Origin: Escherichia coli
GTDB taxonomy: Bacteria > Pseudomonadota > Gammaproteobacteria > Enterobacterales > Enterobacteriaceae
Length of the DNA stretch: 64,000 bases
Direction: 5' to 3' (one strand)
NCBI RefSeq assembly: GCF_016903815.1
Contig: NZ_CP069973.1
This document shows positions 7,343-33,077 of the stretch, in pieces. Made by a program: the position numbers and the translations under genes. The notes under the pieces were generated by a model. It was not told where the DNA came from. It saw only the letters and a list, made by a program, of their open reading frames with translations, and searched no databases. Every line of letters begins with the position of its first letter. The stretch's first letter is position 1.

Positions 7343-7993
7343 TTAATTCGGCGTATAACCCATTACCACGCCACTTAAGCCAGAAAGTTGCTTCAACTCA
7401 CCCAGCGAACCTTTCAGCTTATCTTTCGAGGCATCTGGCCCAACCAGAATACGAGTAATTTTACCCTGCACTGGCGTGGATGGCGACGTATAAACCCGAT
7501 AACCGGCACCGCGCAGCTTACCGACAATCTCATTCACTTTATCGGCATTTTTCAGTGCGCCCAGTTGTACAACATAGGCTTTACCCGTTGGCGCTGCTTT
7601 TTCTTCCACGACCGGCTTCGGCGCAGGTGGTGCTTCAACCTTCGGTTTCGGCGGCTCTACCGGTTTCGGCTTCGGTGGGACGACCGGTGCAGGTTCCGGT
7701 TCAAACTCGGTGTTATTGGCTGCAATAGTGGCCGGATCGAGCGACGGTGCTGCGGCATCACCTGCCCGCACCTCTTCCGCTGCGCCTTCCGGCGGCTGCG
7801 TCGGCAGCGCCTGGGTGGCGGCTGGCATCATATCAGGCTCATCGCGATCGCCCGCTTTTGGCACCAGCGGGATAGCCGCGAACTCATCCTGATAATGTTT
7901 TTTCTGCCCGTCCAGCAGCCCTGGAAGTACAATCACCCCCAGCGCCACCAGCACGATCGTGCCCACTAACCGATTCTGAAACTTACTTGCCAC
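7343..7993 (-). CDS. dedD: Cell division protein DedD (SPOR domain)
   Basis: Pro/Ala/Lys-rich ORF with C-terminal SPOR-like domain; GTG start chosen at 7991-7993 (MASKFQNRLVG) rather than the longer track ORF. Confidence 0.85.
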   Translation of the reverse strand: MASKFQNRLVGTIVLVALGVIVLPGLLDGQKKHYQDEFAAIPLVPKAGDRDEPDMMPAATQALPTQPPEGAAEEVRAGDAAAPSLDPATIAANNTEFEPEPAPVVPPKPKPVEPPKPKVEAPPAPKPVVEEKAAPTGKAYVVQLGALKNADKVNEIVGKLRGAGYRVYTSPSTPVQGKITRILVGPDASKDKLKGSLGELKQLSGLSGVVMGYTPN

Positions 7994-9251
7994 CGCTTCT
8001 CCTCGCGTCAATCACTTCCATGACATGTGCGACCGTGTGGAACGAACCACACACCAGCACGGTATCTTCCGCTTTAGCGTCCGCCATTGCGGCATCCCAT
8101 GCCTGCGCCACGCTATCAAATGATTTGCCGTTACCCAAATGCTCAAGCAGTTGTTCTGCCGTGGCACCGCGCGGCCCTTCCAGTGGCGCACAATACCAGT
8201 CATCAACCACGCTTTTCAACCAGGCCAGAGTTCCGGCAATATCTTTATCATGTAGCATACCGATAACCGCCAGCACGCGCCCGTTTTTCGGTAGCGCTTT
8301 CATACGCCCGGTGAGATATTCCGCCGCATGTGGATTATGCGCGACATCAAAAATAACGCGTGGTGACTCGCTCACAATCTGGAAACGTCCCGGCAAAATT
8401 GCGTTGGCAATCCCGTCGCGAATGGCATTTTCACTGACCTCCAGCCCGCTGGCACGCAGTGCCGCCAGCGCCGTTGCGGCATTCGGTTGCGGGACAAGCG
8501 GCAACGGCAGATTTTCCAGCGTGCCGTGAGCATCGCTAAACGCCCAGTCATGATCGGTGACGGAATAGTTCCACTCAACGCCCCGACGTTGTAACAGTGC
8601 ACTTTTTTCCTGCGCCACATCAGCAATGGTAGAAGGCATTTCCGGCTCACCGACAATTGCCGGTTTTTCGCTGCGGAAGATGCCTGCTTTCTCGCGACCA
8701 ATGCTTTCGCGATCTGGCCCCAGCCAGTCGGTATGATCCAGCGCAATGCTGGTTACTACCGCAACATCGGCATCGACAATATTGGTTGCGTCCAGACGAC
8801 CGCCCAGCCCTACTTCCAGAATCACCACGTCAAGTTGTGCCTGTTTGAACAGCCACAACGCCGACAGCGTACCGTACTCGAAATAGGTCAGGGAAATATC
8901 ACCGCGTGCCGATTCAATCTCCGCAAAAGAGGCGGTGTGGGCCGATTCCGGCAATTCCTGCCCCTGCACACGTACGCGCTCGGTATAACGCACCAGATGC
9001 GGTGAACTGTAGACGCCCACTTTGTACCCTGCCGCCATCAGAATCGACTCCAGCGTACGGCAGGTGGTGCCTTTGCCATTCGTACCCGCAACGGTAAACA
9101 CAAATGGCGCTGGTTTCAGAACGCCAAGACGCGCCGCGACCTGGCTCACGCGCTCAAGGCCGAGATCGATAGTTTTACTGTGCAGGTTTTCCAGATAAGA
9201 AAGCCACGAAGCCAGAGGCGACGCGGCTTGAGGAGTGCGTTTGATAATCAT
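7983..9251 (-). CDS. folC: Dihydrofolate synthase / folylpolyglutamate synthase
   Basis: 422-aa ORF with Mur-ligase-like P-loop (AGTNGKGT) between accD and dedD. Confidence 0.93.
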   Translation of the reverse strand: MIIKRTPQAASPLASWLSYLENLHSKTIDLGLERVSQVAARLGVLKPAPFVFTVAGTNGKGTTCRTLESILMAAGYKVGVYSSPHLVRYTERVRVQGQELPESAHTASFAEIESARGDISLTYFEYGTLSALWLFKQAQLDVVILEVGLGGRLDATNIVDADVAVVTSIALDHTDWLGPDRESIGREKAGIFRSEKPAIVGEPEMPSTIADVAQEKSALLQRRGVEWNYSVTDHDWAFSDAHGTLENLPLPLVPQPNAATALAALRASGLEVSENAIRDGIANAILPGRFQIVSESPRVIFDVAHNPHAAEYLTGRMKALPKNGRVLAVIGMLHDKDIAGTLAWLKSVVDDWYCAPLEGPRGATAEQLLEHLGNGKSFDSVAQAWDAAMADAKAEDTVLVCGSFHTVAHVMEVIDARRSGGK

Positions 9252-23762: not shown

Positions 23763-24695
23763 TTAATCTTTATAAATCGCGAAATGTTCACGGGCCGCCA
23801 GCAGCTGCTCTTTGGTGAGCATAAACACACCATCGCCGCCGTTATCAAACTCCAGCCAGGTGAACGGAACATCCGGATATTGTTCCATAAGATGTACCAT
23901 GCTGTTGCCCACTTCACAAATCAGCACGCCATCATCAGCGAGGTAATCTGCCGCGTTTCCGAGAATGCGACGCGTCAGTTTCAGGCCGTCGGTGCCAGAT
24001 GCTAGGCCCAGTTCCGGCTCGTGACGGTATTCGTTTGGCAGGTCGGACATATCTTCCGCATCGACATACGGCGGGTTAGTGACAATCAGGTCGTACTGCA
24101 CTTTCGGTAAATCACGGAACAGATCAGAGCGAATCGGAATGACGTTGTGGATCAGACCGTGTTCTTCGATGTTCTGTTCAGCAACCGCCAGCGCGTCGGG
24201 AGAGATATCCACCGCGTCAACTTCCGCATCCGGGAAGGCATAAGCACAGGCAATGGCGATGCAGCCGCTACCGGTACACATATCTAAAATATGCTGCGGT
24301 TGCTTGCTGATAAGTCCGGCAAATTTATTGTTGATCAATTCACCAATCGGCGAGCGCGGCACCAGCACACGTTCATCGACGTAAAATTCATGACCGCAGA
24401 ACCACGCTTTGTTAGTCAGGTAAGCCACCGGAATGCGTTCATTGACGCGGCGGATCACGCGCTCAACAATACGGTGTTTTTCGCTGGAGGTCAGACGCGC
24501 GGTGCGCATATCTTCCGGGATATCCAGCGGCAGGTAGAGTGAAGGCAACACCAGTTGCACGGCTTCATCCCACGGGTTGTCAGTGCCGTGGCCGTACCAG
24601 ATATTCGCCGCGCTGAAGCGGCTCACCGACCAGCGCAACATGTCCTGAATGGTTTGCAGCTCATTTACTGCTTCATCAACGAAAATTTTATCCAC
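23763..24695 (-). CDS. prmB: Ribosomal protein uL3 glutamine methyltransferase
   Basis: SAM-methyltransferase motif ([12 protein letters not shown]) and NPPY; GTG start at 24693-24695 ([10 protein letters not shown]) verified in sequence, the track ORF being a 5' over-extension. Confidence 0.9.
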
Positions 24696-24860
24696 GTATT
24701 CCTCCAGGGCATGATCGCAATAATTTCGGCGGCTAGTTTGCCATGAAGATGACGATAAATCAGCATTCACGCGCGGTGAGTGAGGAAAAATACGTTTAAA
24801 ACGATCGATTGCGCTACGAGTCGGGTAAACTGTAGGAAAATTAGAAATAGAGACAGATAA

Positions 24861-25412
24861 ATGAAAAAGAAAACAACACTTAGCGAGGAGGACCAGGCTC
24901 TGTTTCGCCAGTTGATGGCGGGGACTCGCAAGATTAAGCAGGACACGATTGTCCACCGACCGCAGCGTAAGAAAATCAGCGAAGTGCCGGTGAAACGGTT
25001 GATTCAGGAGCAGGCCGATGCCAGCCATTATTTTTCCGATGAATTTCAGCCGTTATTGAATACCGAAGGTCCGGTGAAATATGTTCGCCCGGATGTAAGC
25101 CATTTTGAGGCGAAGAAGTTACGCCGTGGCGATTATTCACCGGAGCTGTTTTTGGATTTGCACGGTTTGACGCAGCTGCAAGCCAAGCAGGAGTTAGGCG
25201 CATTGATTGCCGCCTGTCGCCGCGAACATGTGTTTTGTGCCTGCGTGATGCATGGTCATGGGAAGCATATTTTGAAGCAGCAAACGCCGCTGTGGCTGGC
25301 GCAACATCCGCATGTGATGGCATTTCACCAGGCACCAAAAGAGTACGGTGGTGATGCGGCATTGCTGGTGTTGATTGAAGTGGATGAGTGGTTGCCGCCG
25401 GAATTACCGTGA
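24861..25412 (+). CDS. smrB: Smr-domain ribosome rescue endonuclease
   Basis: 183-aa ORF with C-terminal Smr domain (LDLHGLT...), divergent from prmB. Confidence 0.88.
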
Positions 25413-25413
25413 A

Positions 25414-25468
25414 TGCTGGCATCGAATGCCTGATAAGACGCTTCAGCGTCGCATCAGGCATCAGTGCA
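25414..25468. repeat. REP element
   Basis: gcctgataagacgcttcagcgtcgcatcaggc palindrome between smrB and yfcO. Confidence 0.65.
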
Positions 25469-25481
25469 CAACGACGAGCTA

Positions 25482-26360
25482 CTACAGCATATTCAGTACG
25501 TACTGGAATCGACAGGTAGAATCAATAGGTTGCCGCGAGGTGGTATCCACGCGAAGCACCATATCATGAAGCTCTTTGTCGGTAATGGGGTGACGATTTG
25601 GTGTTACCGTCACTTTGGCATTGTCACAGCCCGATGAGGTGAAGGTGAGCATCTGCGACACCCAACGACAATAAGCACCACGATCGTCAGTATCACCAAA
25701 TTTGCTGCCGTCACACAGTTTGCCGTCTTTCATCAGGTAGGTGGAGAGCGTTTTTTCAATTATCCCGCCGGTAGACTGGAGCGCTAACGTCTTATCATGC
25801 ACAACCCGACTTTCATTCCAGGAGACATCATAAGGCCCTAACGGTATAGGTGGACAAGAAGAGTTACTGACTGTGCGTCCGGAATAGGTTCCCGGAGCAG
25901 GATCAATAAGATCAATGCTATCTGCATGTGTCGATACCAGCCACGGGCAGCCATGAACGCTGGAGTCTTCCTTCCAGACTTCCATTCGTATTTCATAACA
26001 AGTCCACATCGTCCTTTGCGCACGGCTGTCATACTCTGCAAGCCCCGGACAAGATGATTGTGATATCGCTGTCATCGATATGACTTTTAATGATGGTGCA
26101 GGGCCAGGTCCCGTCCAGCTTTTCAAAGGTATCCATCCAGTGATTAAACCGGTGTTATTTGGTGTCTCATAAACACCGTGATTGACGCTATCGGGGGTAA
26201 GAACATCAAGATAATAAGTTATCTTCGTAGAATAGCTTGCATACCCTATCGGTGTATACATTGTTGCAACAATGACATTCGCCTGAACTGCTGTACTGAA
26301 GAAAAGTGATATCAGCAGGCCCAAAATCCAGCGCATTATTTTCATCTTAAATATACTCAA
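25482..26360 (-). CDS. yfcO: Fimbrial operon-associated secreted protein YfcO
   Basis: 292-aa signal-peptide ORF at the distal end of the yfc fimbrial operon; exact start uncertain. Confidence 0.75.
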   Translation of the reverse strand: MSIFKMKIMRWILGLLISLFFSTAVQANVIVATMYTPIGYASYSTKITYYLDVLTPDSVNHGVYETPNNTGLITGWIPLKSWTGPGPAPSLKVISMTAISQSSCPGLAEYDSRAQRTMWTCYEIRMEVWKEDSSVHGCPWLVSTHADSIDLIDPAPGTYSGRTVSNSSCPPIPLGPYDVSWNESRVVHDKTLALQSTGGIIEKTLSTYLMKDGKLCDGSKFGDTDDRGAYCRWVSQMLTFTSSGCDNAKVTVTPNRHPITDKELHDMVLRVDTTSRQPIDSTCRFQYVLNML

Positions 26361-26892
26361 ACGTTGCGGTTAACTGGGCGGTAAAATTACCAGGTGTTAC
26401 ATCACGCCCCTCTTTTGCCTGTAACCATGCTCTGAAATTAAGACTGTTATTGCCATCATTCAGCACAAAGGTCACTCCCGTCGTGTTATTAATAGCAACA
26501 GCAGTACCATCAGTAGTTTCCATACCAATGCCTACGCCCTGTGCACCAGAGGTATCATCCAGAGCCAGAAATCCCGGTTGCCCACTGTCTTCTGTTCCGG
26601 TCAGAGTAACTTTTACGCTGTACTGCGCTGGCCCACGGCAATCTTTCAGGCGAAAAACCACCGGTACACGATCGGACTGACCGCGCACCATCAAATCTTT
26701 GTGGCTAATATTCGCAAACTGTACCTCTGCCAACGTTCCAGCCTGTTCCACCGGAGTACAGGTTTTGCTCATCAGGTTGCCGTAAAAATGCAAATTATTA
26801 GCTGCCAGTGCTGAATGACTCGCCAGCACCAGCACACCGCCCAACAGAAAGGTTTGCACCCTGATACATTGATATTTCTTCAGTTTGTTCAT
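26347..26892 (-). CDS. yfcP: Fimbrial subunit-like protein
   Basis: 181-aa signal-peptide ORF with fimbrial subunit C-terminal beta-strand (ATFEYI). Confidence 0.8.
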   Translation of the reverse strand: MNKLKKYQCIRVQTFLLGGVLVLASHSALAANNLHFYGNLMSKTCTPVEQAGTLAEVQFANISHKDLMVRGQSDRVPVVFRLKDCRGPAQYSVKVTLTGTEDSGQPGFLALDDTSGAQGVGIGMETTDGTAVAINNTTGVTFVLNDGNNSLNFRAWLQAKEGRDVTPGNFTAQLTATFEYI

Positions 26893-27368
26893 TGATAATC
26901 CACCTGCAATGTGGCGTAAGCGGAAAAGTTACCGTCAGTCAGCGTGGCATCGGAAGCTTTTACAGGTGCGGCCTTCAACTTCGGCAGGTTGGCGGGTGTC
27001 ACGTTAAGCGGGGTATTCAGCTTAAAGGGCTGACCGTTTTGCTGGAGTTCAATCCCTAATCCCGTGACATCCGTCTGAATCGCCGCATCGTTATAGTTGG
27101 TCTGTGTACCGGTCCAGGTTAGCGTCATTACCCAGGCGTCATCGGTAATATCAGGGTCACACGTTATCTGGTACGGAACATCTTTGCGGTAATTAACCCC
27201 GTCAATATTGTCGATAATGACGTCGATAAACTGGATCTCAATATCATCACCATTGCTGACGGTGCAGACCGGAGGTTCGATCAGCGTACCCGTGAAGGTG
27301 ATATCTTCCGGTGCGGCATGCGTTATGGTGCAAAAAGCGGATAATAAAATTAACGAGAGTCGTTTCAT
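26889..27368 (-). CDS. yfcQ: Fimbrial minor subunit-like protein
   Basis: 159-aa signal-peptide ORF ending ...LQVDYQ, paralogous to yfcR. Confidence 0.8.
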   Translation of the reverse strand: MKRLSLILLSAFCTITHAAPEDITFTGTLIEPPVCTVSNGDDIEIQFIDVIIDNIDGVNYRKDVPYQITCDPDITDDAWVMTLTWTGTQTNYNDAAIQTDVTGLGIELQQNGQPFKLNTPLNVTPANLPKLKAAPVKASDATLTDGNFSAYATLQVDYQ

Positions 27369-27856
27369 TGGTAATCCACCACCATTGTCATGCTGGCGTT
27401 AAACTGTGCGCCTGTCAGCGTCACGCCATTCTGTTTGACTGGCACTGCTTTTAGTTGTGGCTGGCTACTGACGCTAAATGGAGTCCAGGTATTGTCGCCA
27501 ATCGCAAACAGAGAGTTATCTGCTGCATTTTCAATACGAATGCCAAACCCGGTAATTCCCGTGCTTAACACCGTTTCGCCATTGATCGTGGTGGTTGTGC
27601 CCTTAAACTGCATCTGAAGGTCATCGCTCAGGCTATTGGCACAGTTCAGGGTATAACCTGCATCTTTGCGATATTCAGTACCATTGATTTTTTTGATGAT
27701 CACATCACCAAAATCGACGTTACTGCCTTTTACGGTACAAGGAGGTGGTGGGTCTACCAGTACGCGCAATGTCAATGGCACACTTTTCGTTTCACCGGCA
27801 AGAGCACTGCCCGTAAGCAGCACTCCTCCCAGCCCGGCCAAAAGTAGTCGTTTCAT
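27365..27856 (-). CDS. yfcR: Fimbrial minor subunit-like protein
   Basis: 163-aa signal-peptide ORF ending ...MVVDYQ. Confidence 0.8.
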   Translation of the reverse strand: MKRLLLAGLGGVLLTGSALAGETKSVPLTLRVLVDPPPPCTVKGSNVDFGDVIIKKINGTEYRKDAGYTLNCANSLSDDLQMQFKGTTTTINGETVLSTGITGFGIRIENAADNSLFAIGDNTWTPFSVSSQPQLKAVPVKQNGVTLTGAQFNASMTMVVDYQ

Positions 27857-27871
27857 CTCACACTCCCGGCC

Positions 27872-28621
27872 TCAGCCTTTGCGGCTCTGCTCTTCATCAA
27901 CCTGGCAACTGTTACCGTTGCAGGTGAAAAAGAGCGGCATCCGAGCGCCATAGTCGTTGACATAGGTCAGTACCGGCACACTCCCCATCTTCACATTCAG
28001 CGGTGCAGAGGTTTTCGGCGACATCACTATTGGCGAGAAACCGGCTGCCGGATTGCCATTTTTCTGTGCGCTGGCATTACTGAAAATGACGTAATACGGC
28101 GTCGGGTTATTGACAGTAAATTCCTGACCGTTGCGGGTTAAGGTCACTTTATGCTGCCACGGGTTTTGCGTGGTGTTTTTTTCCAGAGCTTTCGGTCGCC
28201 AGAAAAGTTTGATACGCGTCTGAAGAGCGATTTGTAGCGTGTTGGATTTGTTCGATTTCGGCGGAATTTCGCGCACGTTGAAATAGAACATCGATTCCCG
28301 ATCGGCAGGTAATTTATGAATATCCGGCAGGCCCTGAATTTTAACCTGGCCATTCATCATTGCTTCAATGCGCTGTACAGGCGGCAATACCGCCAGCGGC
28401 GAGCTGATCTTGACGCCCTTTTCATCTTCAATCCAGCTTTGCGCCAGATAAGGCAGTTTGGGGTCGTTATTACGCAGCGTCACACTGATAGATTTATCGC
28501 TTTCATTAAAAATCAGGCGAGTACGATCGGGCGTTACTGACGCCTGGGTAGAAAAACTTACCGTTGCTGCCAGTAACGACAGTACCGTTGTCAATGTTTT
28601 GGCAGAGAGATATTTAGTCAT
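27872..28621 (-). CDS. yfcS: Periplasmic fimbrial chaperone (PapD-like)
   Basis: 249-aa signal-peptide ORF with PapD-like chaperone features. Confidence 0.85.
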   Translation of the reverse strand: MTKYLSAKTLTTVLSLLAATVSFSTQASVTPDRTRLIFNESDKSISVTLRNNDPKLPYLAQSWIEDEKGVKISSPLAVLPPVQRIEAMMNGQVKIQGLPDIHKLPADRESMFYFNVREIPPKSNKSNTLQIALQTRIKLFWRPKALEKNTTQNPWQHKVTLTRNGQEFTVNNPTPYYVIFSNASAQKNGNPAAGFSPIVMSPKTSAPLNVKMGSVPVLTYVNDYGARMPLFFTCNGNSCQVDEEQSRKG

Positions 28622-28640
28622 GGATCATTCCTTAATCACG

Positions 28641-31292
28641 TTATTGGTTCGATGAAACAGACATCGGCGGTTCCATTGGTGTCACCTGTTGTGTCTGCTC
28701 CTGAATGACGGGTTGAATATCATGCGGTATGACGGGAGAACTTCCCCCCTTTTGCTGGCATGGCAACAACAAGCCATTGAACAGGTCATTCGGTAACGGG
28801 TCTGGCAGGCTGATATCGCAGTGAGATTCACCCTCCCAGAAAACGGTCATATGTTCACCCGGTTTAACGCCTGCCAGATAAACATTACCTTCGTCATCAA
28901 CCAACCCTACTTGTTGTTGATTATCGTTTTTCACTTCCGCCCCAAATGGCGGATGGCTGCCATCCTGCAAGCGCAGCACTGCCATCGCCTTCTCACCGCT
29001 GATTACCGCAAATTTACGGTAGCCAATAGCGCCTTCCGTCAGCGTTGCCTGAACCACTGATTTTGTAGCTTCAGCGTTTTCCGGCAGTTTGTTCAAATCG
29101 ATATAAGCCTGGTTGCGGTAGTAATCATTAACATCTGCCACCACCGCTTTGCCGAACATGTTGGTATAAACGGCGGAACCATTACCTTCAACCGGCACAT
29201 TAGCAACGCCATCAGCGTCGATTAACAGACGTGTACCGCCCATGTTTTGTGTACGATGCAGTGCCCCGCCATGAGCGGTCAGCGTTGCCCCGCCCTGTAA
29301 AGAGATCCCTGCTGAGGTGTATTGCCCTTCATGGTAGTTGGCACTGAGATCCACTTTTGCCAGAGTACCATCGTGGCTGTAGTAGCCATCCACGCTGCTG
29401 TGGTTTTCGCTGGTTCCGGCGCTTAACGTGTAGTGGCTGGCGTCATCAATGCGGTGATACAGACTCACCTGATTGCTGTCGGCACCGCTGCCATAGTTGC
29501 CGTTGTAACTGATGGTGCTGTTGTCGCCCCACGGCAAACTTAAGGACAGATAAACACCCTTGTCAGCACTTTTATCGTATTCGTAGCGATAACCGGTCAG
29601 AGAAACGCTCAGGTTGCGAAGGCTTCCTAAATTAAAATAATGAGAAAGCATCATGTTGTAGTTGGTCTGATCCTGGCGATCCCAGTAGGTATGGTGGGAA
29701 TAGTTGAGATAGACCGAAACGCGCGCATCCGTGAAGTTCTGGTTATAGGTGACCGTATACATCTCTTTGTCGTTACCGGTGCGCGCCCGGTCGTCGTCGT
29801 TCGCATCCAGATACTCGCTCATGGTCATGTAGTTTTTTTCAGAGAAGCGGTATCCAGCAAACGTCACCCGACTGTTGAGTTCATCAAAATCTTTGGCATA
29901 GCTGACGCGATAAGAGTTGCCGTCCAGCGTTTTGTTGCCATACACGCTGTTATCGTCGAGTTGAACACGAGAGTGAGTGACATCAAACGCTAACGCGCCT
30001 AGCAGCGCCAGGTCACGACCGAGGCCCAGCGCCGCCGACTGGTAGTTTTCATCGGCTAACGCACCGCCGTAGAGCGACCAGCCATTGGCAATCCCCCAGG
30101 ATGCCTCGCCGCCCGAGAAGAAGCTACCTGCAACCTGATGGTCCCAGTTTTGTGGACGCCCCATTGTCACTTTGTAACGCACCTGGCCGGGGCGAGTCAG
30201 GAACGGCATGGACGCCGTGCTGACGTCGTATTCCTGTACCTGGCCGTTTTGTTCTTCAATGCGGACATGCAGCGTGCCAGAGACGGAATCGCCAATATCC
30301 TGGATGCGGAATGGACCTGCGGGTACCTGGGTTTCGTAAATGACACGGCCCATTTGGGTTACGGTCACTTTAGCGGTAGTGTGTGCAACACCTGAAATAT
30401 CGGGGGCGTAGCCGCGCAGGTTTGGCGGTAACATTTGATCATCGGTACTGATGCTGCCGCCAATGTAACTGAAGCCATCAAAAATATCGGAGTTGAGATA
30501 ATCTTCGCCCAGCGAAAGTTTGGCTTTTAATGACGGCAAGGCGCGCCAGGCGTAGTAACGACTCCACTCCCAGTTTTTTTGCGTACCGCTATCGTCAGTG
30601 TCGCCGTCATCGTTACTGCGGGTATGCTGATAATCGCTCTGCCAGTCAGCTCGTAAGCGCCACGGCCCAACGTTAACGCCGACCGTACCATTACCGCAGA
30701 TGTCGTTAGTGTCATCACCCCCATTTTCATGCCGGGTTTGCGCGTTGATACTGTAATCGGCAATAAGCCCAGGGATACCGTCATCCCAGCGCGAAGGCGG
30801 ATCCCACTCGCTGTCGGTATATTCCAGATAAGCCTGCGGTACAGAAACAAGGAGTGCAGACTGGCCTAAATCGCCGCTAATTTCTGTACCTGCTAAAAGT
30901 GCCGTATTCAGACACTGACCATCGCGGATCCATTGCAAATTCTTTGCAATATCTTCCTTCAGACCAAACTGGGCAACCAGCTCTGGCGATAAGCAGGCAT
31001 ATGATTTATTCGGATCGTTTTCAGTTGCGTACCAGTAGATATCGTAGTCGTCAGGTAACGGCTGATTATTTACATGAACGCGTAAGTTATATTTTCCCGG
31101 TTCTACATAGCCTTTTTGCGAAAAACGGCCCAAATCAATTTTGGTATTGCCTTTTAAATCAAGAAATCGGCCATCAAACTGAATGGTATCGTCTGCCAGG
31201 GCATTAAATGGACTTCCAGAAATTGCCAGAGCAATCCACCACGAAAGCCCCCGTAAACGGAGAAAAGAATGTTCTGGCATCGGCGTATCCAT
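28641..31292 (-). CDS. yfcU: Fimbrial outer-membrane usher, intact
   Basis: Single uninterrupted 883-aa usher ORF with signal peptide; corresponds to the K-12 locus where the usher is split into pseudogene fragments. Confidence 0.85.
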   Translation of the reverse strand: MDTPMPEHSFLRLRGLSWWIALAISGSPFNALADDTIQFDGRFLDLKGNTKIDLGRFSQKGYVEPGKYNLRVHVNNQPLPDDYDIYWYATENDPNKSYACLSPELVAQFGLKEDIAKNLQWIRDGQCLNTALLAGTEISGDLGQSALLVSVPQAYLEYTDSEWDPPSRWDDGIPGLIADYSINAQTRHENGGDDTNDICGNGTVGVNVGPWRLRADWQSDYQHTRSNDDGDTDDSGTQKNWEWSRYYAWRALPSLKAKLSLGEDYLNSDIFDGFSYIGGSISTDDQMLPPNLRGYAPDISGVAHTTAKVTVTQMGRVIYETQVPAGPFRIQDIGDSVSGTLHVRIEEQNGQVQEYDVSTASMPFLTRPGQVRYKVTMGRPQNWDHQVAGSFFSGGEASWGIANGWSLYGGALADENYQSAALGLGRDLALLGALAFDVTHSRVQLDDNSVYGNKTLDGNSYRVSYAKDFDELNSRVTFAGYRFSEKNYMTMSEYLDANDDDRARTGNDKEMYTVTYNQNFTDARVSVYLNYSHHTYWDRQDQTNYNMMLSHYFNLGSLRNLSVSLTGYRYEYDKSADKGVYLSLSLPWGDNSTISYNGNYGSGADSNQVSLYHRIDDASHYTLSAGTSENHSSVDGYYSHDGTLAKVDLSANYHEGQYTSAGISLQGGATLTAHGGALHRTQNMGGTRLLIDADGVANVPVEGNGSAVYTNMFGKAVVADVNDYYRNQAYIDLNKLPENAEATKSVVQATLTEGAIGYRKFAVISGEKAMAVLRLQDGSHPPFGAEVKNDNQQQVGLVDDEGNVYLAGVKPGEHMTVFWEGESHCDISLPDPLPNDLFNGLLLPCQQKGGSSPVIPHDIQPVIQEQTQQVTPMEPPMSVSSNQ

Positions 31293-31363
31293 CCATGATT
31301 TTTTATAATTTAGTTATTTGGTAGTTATAAACCCCATAACTTTGCAGCTATGGGGGAAATACA

Positions 31364-31930
31364 TTAGAGATACGTGATCTGGAACGTCGTCAGCGTTTCA
31401 AACGGTGCCGGTGTTGGTGTTACAGCATCCGTTTCACCCACTAACCATGCTTTAAAGTTCAGAGTTTGTTTAGGCTTGCCTTTTCCCGTTGAACTGTCCT
31501 TCACGATAGGTTGCTTAATCTCTGCTCCCAGTGCATAACCTGTACCGTGCTGGTCACCGATAACCAGGCTAACGTTTGGAATTTCAGTTCCATTATCCAT
31601 GTTAGACAGAGAATAGTTATCTGCGTTAGTGGAGTACGGATTACCGGTGAATGTGGTAGCCATTGTCGTTTCTGTATTGAAATTACAGTCCTGTAAACGA
31701 ATCTGGAAATCTTTTGGTGTGGTTGTTTTGCCGCCGGTTAAAGAACCCGTACCGATGCTGCCCATATCCACTTCCAGTTTATGATCGTCAGGAACAATTG
31801 AGCACGGGGAGTCTTCAATTGTGCCGTAAAATCTCACTGTACCGTTGTTCCCTGCGGCAACGACTGATGCTGAAGTCAGCGCCCCCATGAGCATTGCCGT
31901 GGCAACTGCTGCTTTTACAAACTTACTCAT
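31364..31930 (-). CDS. yfcV: Major fimbrial subunit
   Basis: 188-aa signal-peptide ORF ending ...FQITYL; first gene of the yfc operon. Confidence 0.85.
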   Translation of the reverse strand: MSKFVKAAVATAMLMGALTSASVVAAGNNGTVRFYGTIEDSPCSIVPDDHKLEVDMGSIGTGSLTGGKTTTPKDFQIRLQDCNFNTETTMATTFTGNPYSTNADNYSLSNMDNGTEIPNVSLVIGDQHGTGYALGAEIKQPIVKDSSTGKGKPKQTLNFKAWLVGETDAVTPTPAPFETLTTFQITYL

Positions 31931-32540
31931 TATTTGTCCTTAAATCATAAATAATTAGAATATAAGCCAACTGAAATATTGACGTAGAGCTTCTTCAATT
32001 TTTACAGCGACTTTTAAGCAGCCAATGAACAGATTTTCAGCTCCTGAAAAAACAGGTTCCTTGATATAATATTCTTTGGCGTGCCGAACATGTTGATATT
32101 TTAATATGACTGATGCAATTTAAATTTTCTAACATTCAAAGTTAGAAATACTTAATTAATGGACGGGGATAATAATTACTGAAATTTTTCATCTCAGTTA
32201 TGAAGAATGAGTTCAAAAAAACGGCAAATGCAAAAACTCAGTGAATAAATCAAAGTCAAAAACAATCACATGGCAATGACTATCTTGTGATATTAATTTC
32301 GCAACGATATAATATTAAAACACTATAATTAATATAAAATCAAGACCCAATAATATTTTTCACTTTAGTCATTATTTACCTAAAAATGCTTCCAGAAAAA
32401 TAATTTATGAATAAAAGTAAATTCTCTTTCAATATGTAAATTTTTACAAATAAAAGCGTCATGCCGTATAAAATAAAGACCATTCGATCACAAGCGGATC
32501 ATTGTTAGTACAATAAGATTGCATAAATTCAACATTGCCA

Positions 32541-32580
32541 GAAAAAAATAAAGGCCCGATAGATTACACCAGCGGGCCTT
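32541..32580 (-). terminator. Rho-independent terminator downstream of sixA
   Basis: Stem aaggcccg (32551-58) / cgggcctt (32573-80); on the minus strand it is followed by UUUAUUUUUUU. Confidence 0.7.
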
Positions 32581-32591
32581 GTGCATGCGTA

Positions 32592-33077
32592 TTAAATCGC
32601 TTTTGCCATCTTCAGATTACACGGGCTCATCTGCCAGTTGAATGTGCCGTTTCCGCTTTCATCAAGCGTTACGCTGGCAATGGCCGAGGTGGTAAACATA
32701 GGCGGCGTTTCGCCCGGACATAACTCAGCAACCAGATACCCGACTAAGGGTAAGTGGGAGATCACCAGTACCGAAGCAACACCTTCATTGGTCAACGCCT
32801 GTAAATAGGCACTGACCAGACCAACATCGCCGCAGGGCGTTAACTCCGGCAGAACTTCTGCACTGGAAGGCAGGTTCAGACAATCCCCTACTTCTTCCAG
32901 TGTTTGCTCGGCTCGCAGGAACGGGCTCACCAGAACGCGTTCGATTTCCACTTTTTGACCTTTCAGCCAGTTCGCCATCAGGCGAGATTCGTCACAACCG
33001 TTAGTAGTCAGAGGACGAACCGAATCACTGGCGGCATCGAGGGCTGCGTCGCCGTGACGCATGATAAAAACTTGCAT
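32592..33077 (-). CDS. sixA: Phosphohistidine phosphatase SixA
   Basis: 161-aa ORF starting MQVFIMRHGDA (RHG catalytic motif). Confidence 0.92.
   Translation of the reverse strand: MQVFIMRHGDAALDAASDSVRPLTTNGCDESRLMANWLKGQKVEIERVLVSPFLRAEQTLEEVGDCLNLPSSAEVLPELTPCGDVGLVSAYLQALTNEGVASVLVISHLPLVGYLVAELCPGETPPMFTTSAIASVTLDESGNGTFNWQMSPCNLKMAKAI

Follow-up and report, generated by a model that had tools for sequence, protein, structure and literature searches.

The window, a stretch of 64,000 nucleotides of Escherichia coli DNA, contains a complete operon in the order yfcV-usher-yfcS-yfcR-yfcQ-yfcP-yfcO between sixA and smrB (Table 1). The usher occupied an ATG-initiated open reading frame of 883 amino acids (28641-31292, minus strand) without an internal stop, as the first-pass annotation had claimed without giving the strand. 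The description of an otherwise complete operon was also borne out, as the six other genes were intact and of normal length. The usher was accompanied by an adjacent gene for its cognate PapD-like chaperone, four genes with the Pfam Fimbrial domain and one DUF2544 gene.

Table 1. Features of the yfc locus in the window
Feature	Coordinates	Strand	Details
smrB, conserved flank	24861-25412	+	bounds divergent block
Divergent allelic block (operon and both intergenic regions)	25413-32591		sliding identity to K-12 42-83%; full configuration in 240 of 5426 genomes
YfcO-like putative tip adhesin, 287 aa	25482-26345	-	Pfam DUF2544; RefSeq StfH/YfcO family; 39-54% identity to other alleles
YfcP-like minor subunit, 181 aa	26347-26892	-	Pfam Fimbrial; best NCBIfam StfG; 55-68% identity to other alleles
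YfcQ-like minor subunit, 159 aa	26889-27368	-	Pfam Fimbrial; best NCBIfam StfF; 51-66% identity to other alleles
YfcR-like minor subunit, 163 aa	27365-27856	-	Pfam Fimbrial; best NCBIfam StfE; 49-64% identity to other alleles
YfcS-like periplasmic PapD-like chaperone, 249 aa	27872-28621	-	Pfam PapD_N, PapD_C
Yfc-family PapC-like outer-membrane usher	28641-31280	-	879 aa from second ATG; maximal ORF to 31292 (883 aa)
Tyr codon TAT opposite K-12 TAG	29550-29552	-	residue 581 of 883-aa ORF, 577 of 879-aa protein
YfcV-like major fimbrial subunit, 188 aa	31364-31930	-	Pfam Fimbrial; best NCBIfam StfA, below equivalog cut-off; 66-73% aa identity to other alleles
Upstream intergenic region, AT-rich (29-37% GC)	31931-32591	-	GC profile; unalignable with K-12 counterpart
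sixA, conserved flank	32592-33077	-	bounds divergent block

The product of the usher gene is more likely to be the 879-residue protein predicted from the second ATG, since this codon is the RefSeq start of the identical usher sequence in strain 7/2 (WP_020232969.1), has the same position as the K-12 start and is preceded by a GGA 7 nt upstream, while inspection of the sequence before the first ATG revealed nothing resembling a Shine-Dalgarno sequence. Judged by eye, the N-terminus (MPEHSFLRLRGLSWWIALAISGSPFNALA followed by DD) resembled a signal peptide with its n-, h- and c-regions, as it had an RLR, a hydrophobic stretch and an ALA before the DD, and the alignment to PapC started directly after these elements. 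Pfam matches to PapC_N (1-146 of 146), Usher (3-549 of 549) and PapC_C (3-61 of 66) placed the protein in the PapC/FimD family with its N-terminal domain, plugged beta-barrel and C-terminal domain uninterrupted. The NCBIfam model NF011812 matched over its full length with 1792 bits, relative to a cut-off of 972.

Comparison to the pi-type P fimbriae (PDB 7lhg, 1pdk) aligned the usher to PapC over 805 of 809 mature residues with 739 bits, and about 37 extra Pro/Gln-rich residues extended past the PapC C-terminus. The chaperone scored 207 bits against PapD and shared the cleft residues Arg8 (DRTR) and Lys112 (IKLF) as well as the C-terminal Cys pair. The corresponding scores to FimD (272-277 bits) and FimC (approximately 90) were far lower, which assigned the system to the pi clade in the scheme of Nuccio and Baumler, and the yfc locus has been listed as pi-type (PMC3032704). 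As in pap, the gene for the usher comes before that for the chaperone. Unlike pap, the window locus had no PapG-like adhesin, YfcO being a DUF2544 protein with no solved relative, and genes for a PapB/PapI-type regulator or a PapH-type terminator were not seen there either.

The best NCBIfam matches of the operon were to components of Salmonella enterica Stf (stfACDEFGH), namely StfA for the major subunit, StfD for the chaperone and StfE, StfF and StfG for the minor subunits, and YfcO fell within a family named StfH/YfcO. All five matches were below the equivalog cut-offs, with 133.5 relative to 267 bits for StfA, 340 to 447 for StfD, 153 to 264 for StfE, 168 to 253 for StfF and 153.5 to 253 for StfG, and the window usher was 55-63% identical to Salmonella Stf ushers. 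Judged by these scores, the window operon is homologous, not equivalent, to Salmonella stf.

The K-12 locus yfcOPQRS-yfcU(pseudogene)-yfcV (b2332-b2339, b4661) shared its position, seven genes, gene order and orientation with the window. The K-12 usher gene, yfcU (b4661), has pseudogene status in the annotation and was once split into yfcT and yfcU. The first-pass annotation had described it as pseudogene fragments, which was right in substance, the cause being one in-frame amber codon (TAC to TAG, codon 579) with no frameshift in the alignment. The two ushers were collinear with small indels only, the window gene having TAT opposite the K-12 TAG and neither a frameshift nor a stop of its own, and the K-12 locus was not identical to that of the window.

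Between K-12 and the wild strain EBJ001, which carries the K-12-type allele and has TAC at the K-12 TAG codon, 1 nt of yfcU and 2 nt of the whole 7169-bp sixA-smrB interval differed. An 80-mer bearing the TAG was present in 363 of 5426 complete genomes and the eight carriers sampled all resembled K-12 derivatives; the restriction of the TAG to the K-12 lineage is based on this count and these eight rows. The nine non-K-12 usher alleles examined, that of the window included, were all intact and a Tyr occupied the codon in each of the seven that were aligned. Intact ushers annotated as coding sequences were found in EBJ001, C41(DE3), O26, O157, UTI89, E166, CFSAN018748 and WP8. Because the non-K-12 alleles examined were intact and the sampled genomes with the TAG 80-mer were K-12-like, an intact usher is, on the evidence of these genomes, the species norm and not a strain trait, and the K-12 nonsense mutation is a recent exception of the laboratory lineage.

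An intact usher in the window and a pseudogene in K-12 could together be taken to set this strain apart from typical E. coli such as K-12 by an ability to make Yfc fimbriae, and the first-pass annotation implied as much in treating the intact gene as noteworthy. This is highly improbable when every non-K-12 representative was intact, a single base separates the K-12 TAG from a wild allele and the sampled carriers of the TAG look K-12-derived. The observation of an intact usher is correct but ordinary, and already known in its elements: yfcU is a pseudogene in the K-12 reference annotation, Yfc is recognised as a core-associated locus (PMC3559732), and the diversity of the yfc genes was noted before, their nucleotide diversity being high and their trees discordant with MLST (PMC4850163). 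A literature search found no paper on yfcU as a pseudogene, the matches being to papers on the Plasmodium yFCU marker, and yfcT together with yfcU matched a microarray table only.

The differences from K-12 extended well beyond the amber codon. In a sliding comparison, identity was 42-83% within the divergent block and 91-100% over the genes on either side. The usher was 76% identical in nucleotides and 80% in amino acids, YfcV 66%, YfcR, YfcQ and YfcP 60-66% and YfcO 51%, while the intergenic regions could not be aligned. The window operon is, by these alignments, a separate old allele lineage and not the K-12 operon minus its stop.

Divergence of this order, with K-12 identity of only 76% for usher nucleotides and 39-66% for subunit proteins, could alternatively reflect replacement of yfc by another fimbrial type through horizontal transfer. 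The closest usher from outside E. coli (92%) came from an Escherichia sp., and strains W and O157 have an alternative pi-type cluster at the sixA-yfcN locus that was named separately by Archer et al. (PMC3032704). However, the genes were the same in number, order and chromosomal position as in K-12 and the usher passed the same NCBIfam subfamily model over its full length. The Escherichia yfc-locus ushers formed one group with 76-100% amino acid identity, and the window usher was 76-92% identical to all of them in contrast to 53-64% for the ushers of E. marmotae, Pseudocitrobacter and Salmonella. The definition of Wurpel et al., based on locus and usher phylogeny, pools such alleles (PMC3559732), and under it the location between sixA and smrB (yfcN), the NF011812 match and the identity grouping assign the operon to Yfc, even if K-12 YfcU, at 80% amino acid identity, is distant for a member of the same type. 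Replacement by another fimbrial type is thus considered unlikely, and whether the cluster is called yfc or something else is largely a matter of naming.

The usher locus was present in 5385 of the 5426 genomes. Window-type ushers (at least 90% identity) were found in 633 genomes and the full 7.2-kb configuration in 240, while the other usher families comprised a K-12 type (approximately 3090), a B2 type (approximately 1215) and an O157 type (approximately 430). The O157/W type (ECs3216-3222, 'epo/eso') and the B2/UTI89 type, which includes the yfcV allele used as a UPEC marker, had the same locus, architecture and intact usher as the window. Relative to the window, the O157/W type was 80% identical in the usher and 45% in YfcO and the B2/UTI89 type 77% and 54%, respectively, in amino acids. 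Per-gene amino acid identities revealed both divergence and mosaicism between alleles, and in a neighbour-joining tree of p-distances, which lacked bootstrap support, usher alleles from E. albertii, E. fergusonii and an Escherichia sp. were interspersed among those of E. coli. The alleles at this locus appear from these patterns to be very old and to have been reshuffled as two modules, an assembly module yfcV-usher-yfcS and a tip module yfcR-Q-P-O.

The Clermont phylotyping genes lie beyond the ends of the window. In fadJ, the window shared 95.9-96.8% identity with the phylogroup A, B1, E and B2 representatives, and by this marker the backbone is therefore outside all four. One identical match was of serotype O102:H6, which we take to be ST405 of phylogroup D.

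Usher dN/dS ratios were 0.009-0.073 in both shallow and deep comparisons, with pS of approximately 0.69 between families indicating synonymous saturation. Strong purifying selection of this kind makes a functional usher likely. In YfcO, residues 23-165 had a median identity between alleles of 36% relative to 72% for residues 166-287; an AlphaFold2 model of the protein was all-beta with a pLDDT of 85. No part of the operon varied more than the N-terminal half of YfcO, a sign that receptor binding or antigenicity may be under diversifying selection. It is possible, and we propose it tentatively, that the ancient lineages are kept by balancing or diversifying selection and that the minority combination in the window has its own receptor specificity through this half of YfcO.

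The operon promoter is presumably located in the AT-rich intergenic region upstream of yfcV, which was only 42-63% pseudo-identical to the K-12 counterpart with many gaps. Ten promoter-like sites were predicted there relative to 11.5 expected in shuffled sequences, which was not above chance, and no Rfam family was found in the region. Repeats were short and imperfect, as AT-rich DNA predicts, the best inverted pair being 22 nt at 77%. A fim-like invertible switch was considered for this region and rejected, as the inverted repeats were weak and a recombinase gene was absent nearby.

AT-rich upstream regions are typically silenced by H-NS, and the operon might be intact yet repressed in this way under essentially all conditions, so that intactness would carry no phenotype. 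The AT-rich region and a promoter signal no better than chance are in keeping with such silence, as is the K-12 yfc operon, called functional but cryptic in a passage of PMC3559732 that cites Korea et al. 2010. We regard permanent silence as somewhat unlikely because dN/dS of 0.01-0.07 indicates selection on the usher protein, which would require expression in some natural niche.

The operon of the window is very probably an ordinary, functional-looking Yfc chaperone-usher operon homologous to stf, to which the K-12 stop is the exception, and the window carries it in the form of a deeply diverged lineage found in a minority of genomes. By analogy with PapC and FimD, the usher would be exported by the Sec pathway and insert into the outer membrane as a beta-barrel with a plug, and its N-terminal domain would recruit complexes of the YfcS chaperone with subunits. 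Donor-strand exchange would then join the putative YfcO adhesin first, the YfcP, YfcQ and YfcR adaptors next and the YfcV rod last, and the fibre would be extruded via the usher barrel.

K-12 is a poor reference for the yfc operon because its usher carries an amber codon of the laboratory lineage. Methods that take their sequences from K-12 or CFT073 (for example yfcV PCR, microarrays and genome-wide association relative to K-12) will misjudge strains with the window allele, whose YfcV is only 66-73% identical to that of other alleles. YfcO is so different between alleles that functional results obtained with one allele should not be transferred to another.

The usher gene of the yfc operon is intact in the window and all of its companion genes are complete, as the first-pass annotation had proposed, with every gene encoded on the minus strand and smrB and sixA as the flanking genes (see table). 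RefSeq places the start of the identical DNA in strain 7/2 at the second ATG (window 31280), giving 879 amino acids (WP_020232969.1), and this codon coincides with the K-12 gene start in the alignment. A GGA lies 7 nt 5' of the second ATG and an A/T run precedes the first, and the usher product is likely the 879-residue form. All three Pfam modules were full length (PapC_N 1-146/146, Usher 3-549/549 and PapC_C 3-61/66), the NCBIfam subfamily NF011812 covered the protein end to end (1792 bits, cut-off 972), and PapC was by far the best of the solved relatives (739 bits, covering residues 2-806 of its 809; FimD, 272-277 bits). By inspection, the N-terminus (MPEHSFLRLRGLSWWIALAISGSPFNALA, followed by DD) resembles a putative signal peptide, and the PapC alignment begins directly after it. 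The usher runs past the PapC end with some 37 Pro/Gln-rich residues (ending in SSPVIPHDIQPVIQEQTQQVTPMEPPMSVSSNQ; window 28641-28751, residues ~843-879), a tail that is also kept in K-12 YfcU.

Genes of the yfc operon in the window and the amino-acid identity of the window proteins to those of other alleles
Feature	Coordinates	Strand	State	Identity
YfcV-like major subunit	31364-31930	minus	complete gene	66-73%
Usher, maximal ORF	28641..31292	minus	ATG start, 883 aa, zero internal stops	77-80%
PapD-like chaperone (YfcS)	27872-28621	minus	complete gene	74-83%
Minor subunit, Pfam Fimbrial (yfcR position)	27365-27856	minus	complete gene	49-68% (YfcR, YfcQ, YfcP)
Minor subunit, Pfam Fimbrial (yfcQ position)	26889-27368	minus	complete gene	49-68% (YfcR, YfcQ, YfcP)
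Minor subunit, Pfam Fimbrial (yfcP position)	26347-26892	minus	complete gene	49-68% (YfcR, YfcQ, YfcP)
DUF2544 protein, StfH/YfcO family	25482-26345	minus	complete gene	39-54%
SixA, SmrB (flanks)				96-100%

The chaperone shares Arg8, Lys112 and a C-terminal cysteine pair with PapD. The 660 bp upstream of the operon are 29-37% GC; promoter-like sites occurred there at chance level only, an Rfam search of the upstream region returned no family and no convincing invertible element was found upstream of the operon. A 421-aa maximal ORF nearby (23763-25028, minus) was rejected as an ORF-caller artefact, being prmB (annotated at 933 bp, 310 aa) with a spurious N-terminal extension that overlaps the start of the divergently transcribed smrB.

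K-12 MG1655 also has all seven genes at this site and its usher is indeed broken, yfcU (b4661) being an annotated pseudogene through one internal stop, a TAG at codon 579; no frameshift was found in its reading frame. The TAG aligns with a Tyr codon (TAT, 29550-29552) in the window, and yfcU of the wild urinary isolate EBJ001 differs from K-12 by one base (TAC vs TAG), with two differences across the whole 7169-bp sixA-smrB interval. The exact 80-mer centred on the TAG occurred in 363 of 5426 complete genomes, and the eight sampled were all K-12 laboratory derivatives or had K-12-like names and sizes, while ~2,650 further genomes with K-12-type ushers mismatched inside it. The K-12 amber is a recent lesion and appears limited to the K-12 lineage.

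The usher was an intact annotated CDS in EBJ001, C41(DE3), O26:H11, O157:H7, UTI89, E166, CFSAN018748 and WP8-S17-ESBL-08, with Tyr at the K-12 stop position in all of those aligned there, and the locus was present at ≥80% coverage in 5385 of the 5426 genomes. These eight non-K-12 strains, the near-universal locus and the apparent limitation of the TAG to K-12-like genomes together indicate that an uninterrupted usher is normal for the species, and yfc has been described as a core-associated cluster intact in 36/36 genomes examined (Wurpel et al., PMC3559732). The interpretation in the first-pass annotation is partly supported: the operon does look functional from its sequence, but the contrast with K-12 reflects K-12 rather than the window strain, and the intact usher is an already known state of the locus. 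Insertion sequences break the usher in some genomes, including IS1 in K-12-type ushers and in the ushers of two or more B2 records (one of them named O25b:H4-ST131) and ISVsa5 in strain RM10410; natural inactivation thus occurs, via insertion and not via the K-12 stop codon.

Alignment also bore out that the loci are non-identical, the window usher having 76% nucleotide and 80% amino-acid identity to K-12. This divergence spans the entire operon and both intergenic regions (~25413-32591), with flanking genes 91-100% identical, and the window operon is not, on this comparison, the K-12 operon minus a stop codon. Within YfcO, median identity to other alleles was 36% over residues 23-165 and 72% over residues 166-287. 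The last 400 bp of smrB beside the divergent block (25000-25412) are 91% identical to K-12, and the sequence just upstream 99%, which suggests that recombination tracts delivering yfc alleles reach into smrB.

The 5426 genomes included ~3090 K-12-type, ~1215 B2/UTI89-type, ~430 O157/W-type and 633 window-type ushers (≥90% identity), and the full 7.2-kb window configuration was found in only 240. In C41(DE3) the V, U and S genes are of the K-12 type but R, Q, P and O differ, and strains with window-type ushers, two of them with identical YfcV, likewise carry other versions of R, Q, P and O, so that V-U-S and R-Q-P-O seem to behave as two separate modules. A distinct pi-type cluster has been described at sixA-yfcN in strains W and O157 (Archer et al., PMC3032704), and high nucleotide diversity and trees conflicting with MLST were reported for yfc genes (Ren et al., PMC4850163). 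An IS3-family IS1397 transposase lies directly downstream of yfcO in CFSAN018748 (positions 1-1203 of that locus, L009), at the place of smrB in other strains.

Outside E. coli the closest ushers were from Escherichia sp. (92%), E. albertii (82%) and E. fergusonii (78%), followed by E. marmotae (63%) and Salmonella (55-63%), and in a simple neighbour-joining tree without bootstrap the alleles of E. albertii and E. fergusonii were interleaved among the E. coli ones. Usher dN/dS was 0.009, 0.039 and 0.063 for comparisons inside the window-type family; between families it was 0.060-0.073, with synonymous sites saturated (pS ~0.69). By these estimates the usher is under strong purifying selection, and its allele lineages are very old.

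The window carries the full set of sequence features of a PapC/PapD-type assembly system. Following the structural paradigm of PapC and FimD (PDB 7lhg, 3rfz and others), Sec would export the subunits, YfcS would cap each through donor-strand complementation and the usher N-terminal domain would recruit the complexes; the plug would then move aside and donor-strand exchange would link subunits as the fibre is extruded, with YfcO predicted at the tip, YfcP/Q/R as adaptors and YfcV as shaft. K-12 yfc has been termed 'functional but cryptic' (PMC3559732, with reference to Korea et al. 2010), and YfcU has been used as a model substrate for the TAM assembly machinery (PMC11014939, with reference to Stubenrauch et al. 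2016).

In the UTI89 record (NZ_CP062228.1; positions 7600-8272 of the extracted locus, L007) the B2-type yfcV has no stop after the conserved C-terminal FQITYL; the frame continues for at least 36 further codons, and the annotation lists the gene as a pseudogene. The junction 80-mer was exact in 114 genomes, among them ATCC 11775 and an APEC O2:K1:H4 strain; ~490 other B2-type genomes, including Nissle, have 24 additional bases there. A stop-removing deletion in yfcV, a widely used UPEC marker gene, would lengthen the chaperone-bound C-terminus of the pilin.

Much of the divergence, mosaicism and age of yfc alleles is already published in outline (PMC3032704, PMC4850163), and what remains of most interest is the allelic polymorphism at the yfc locus, which is old and modular and has itself been described in part.
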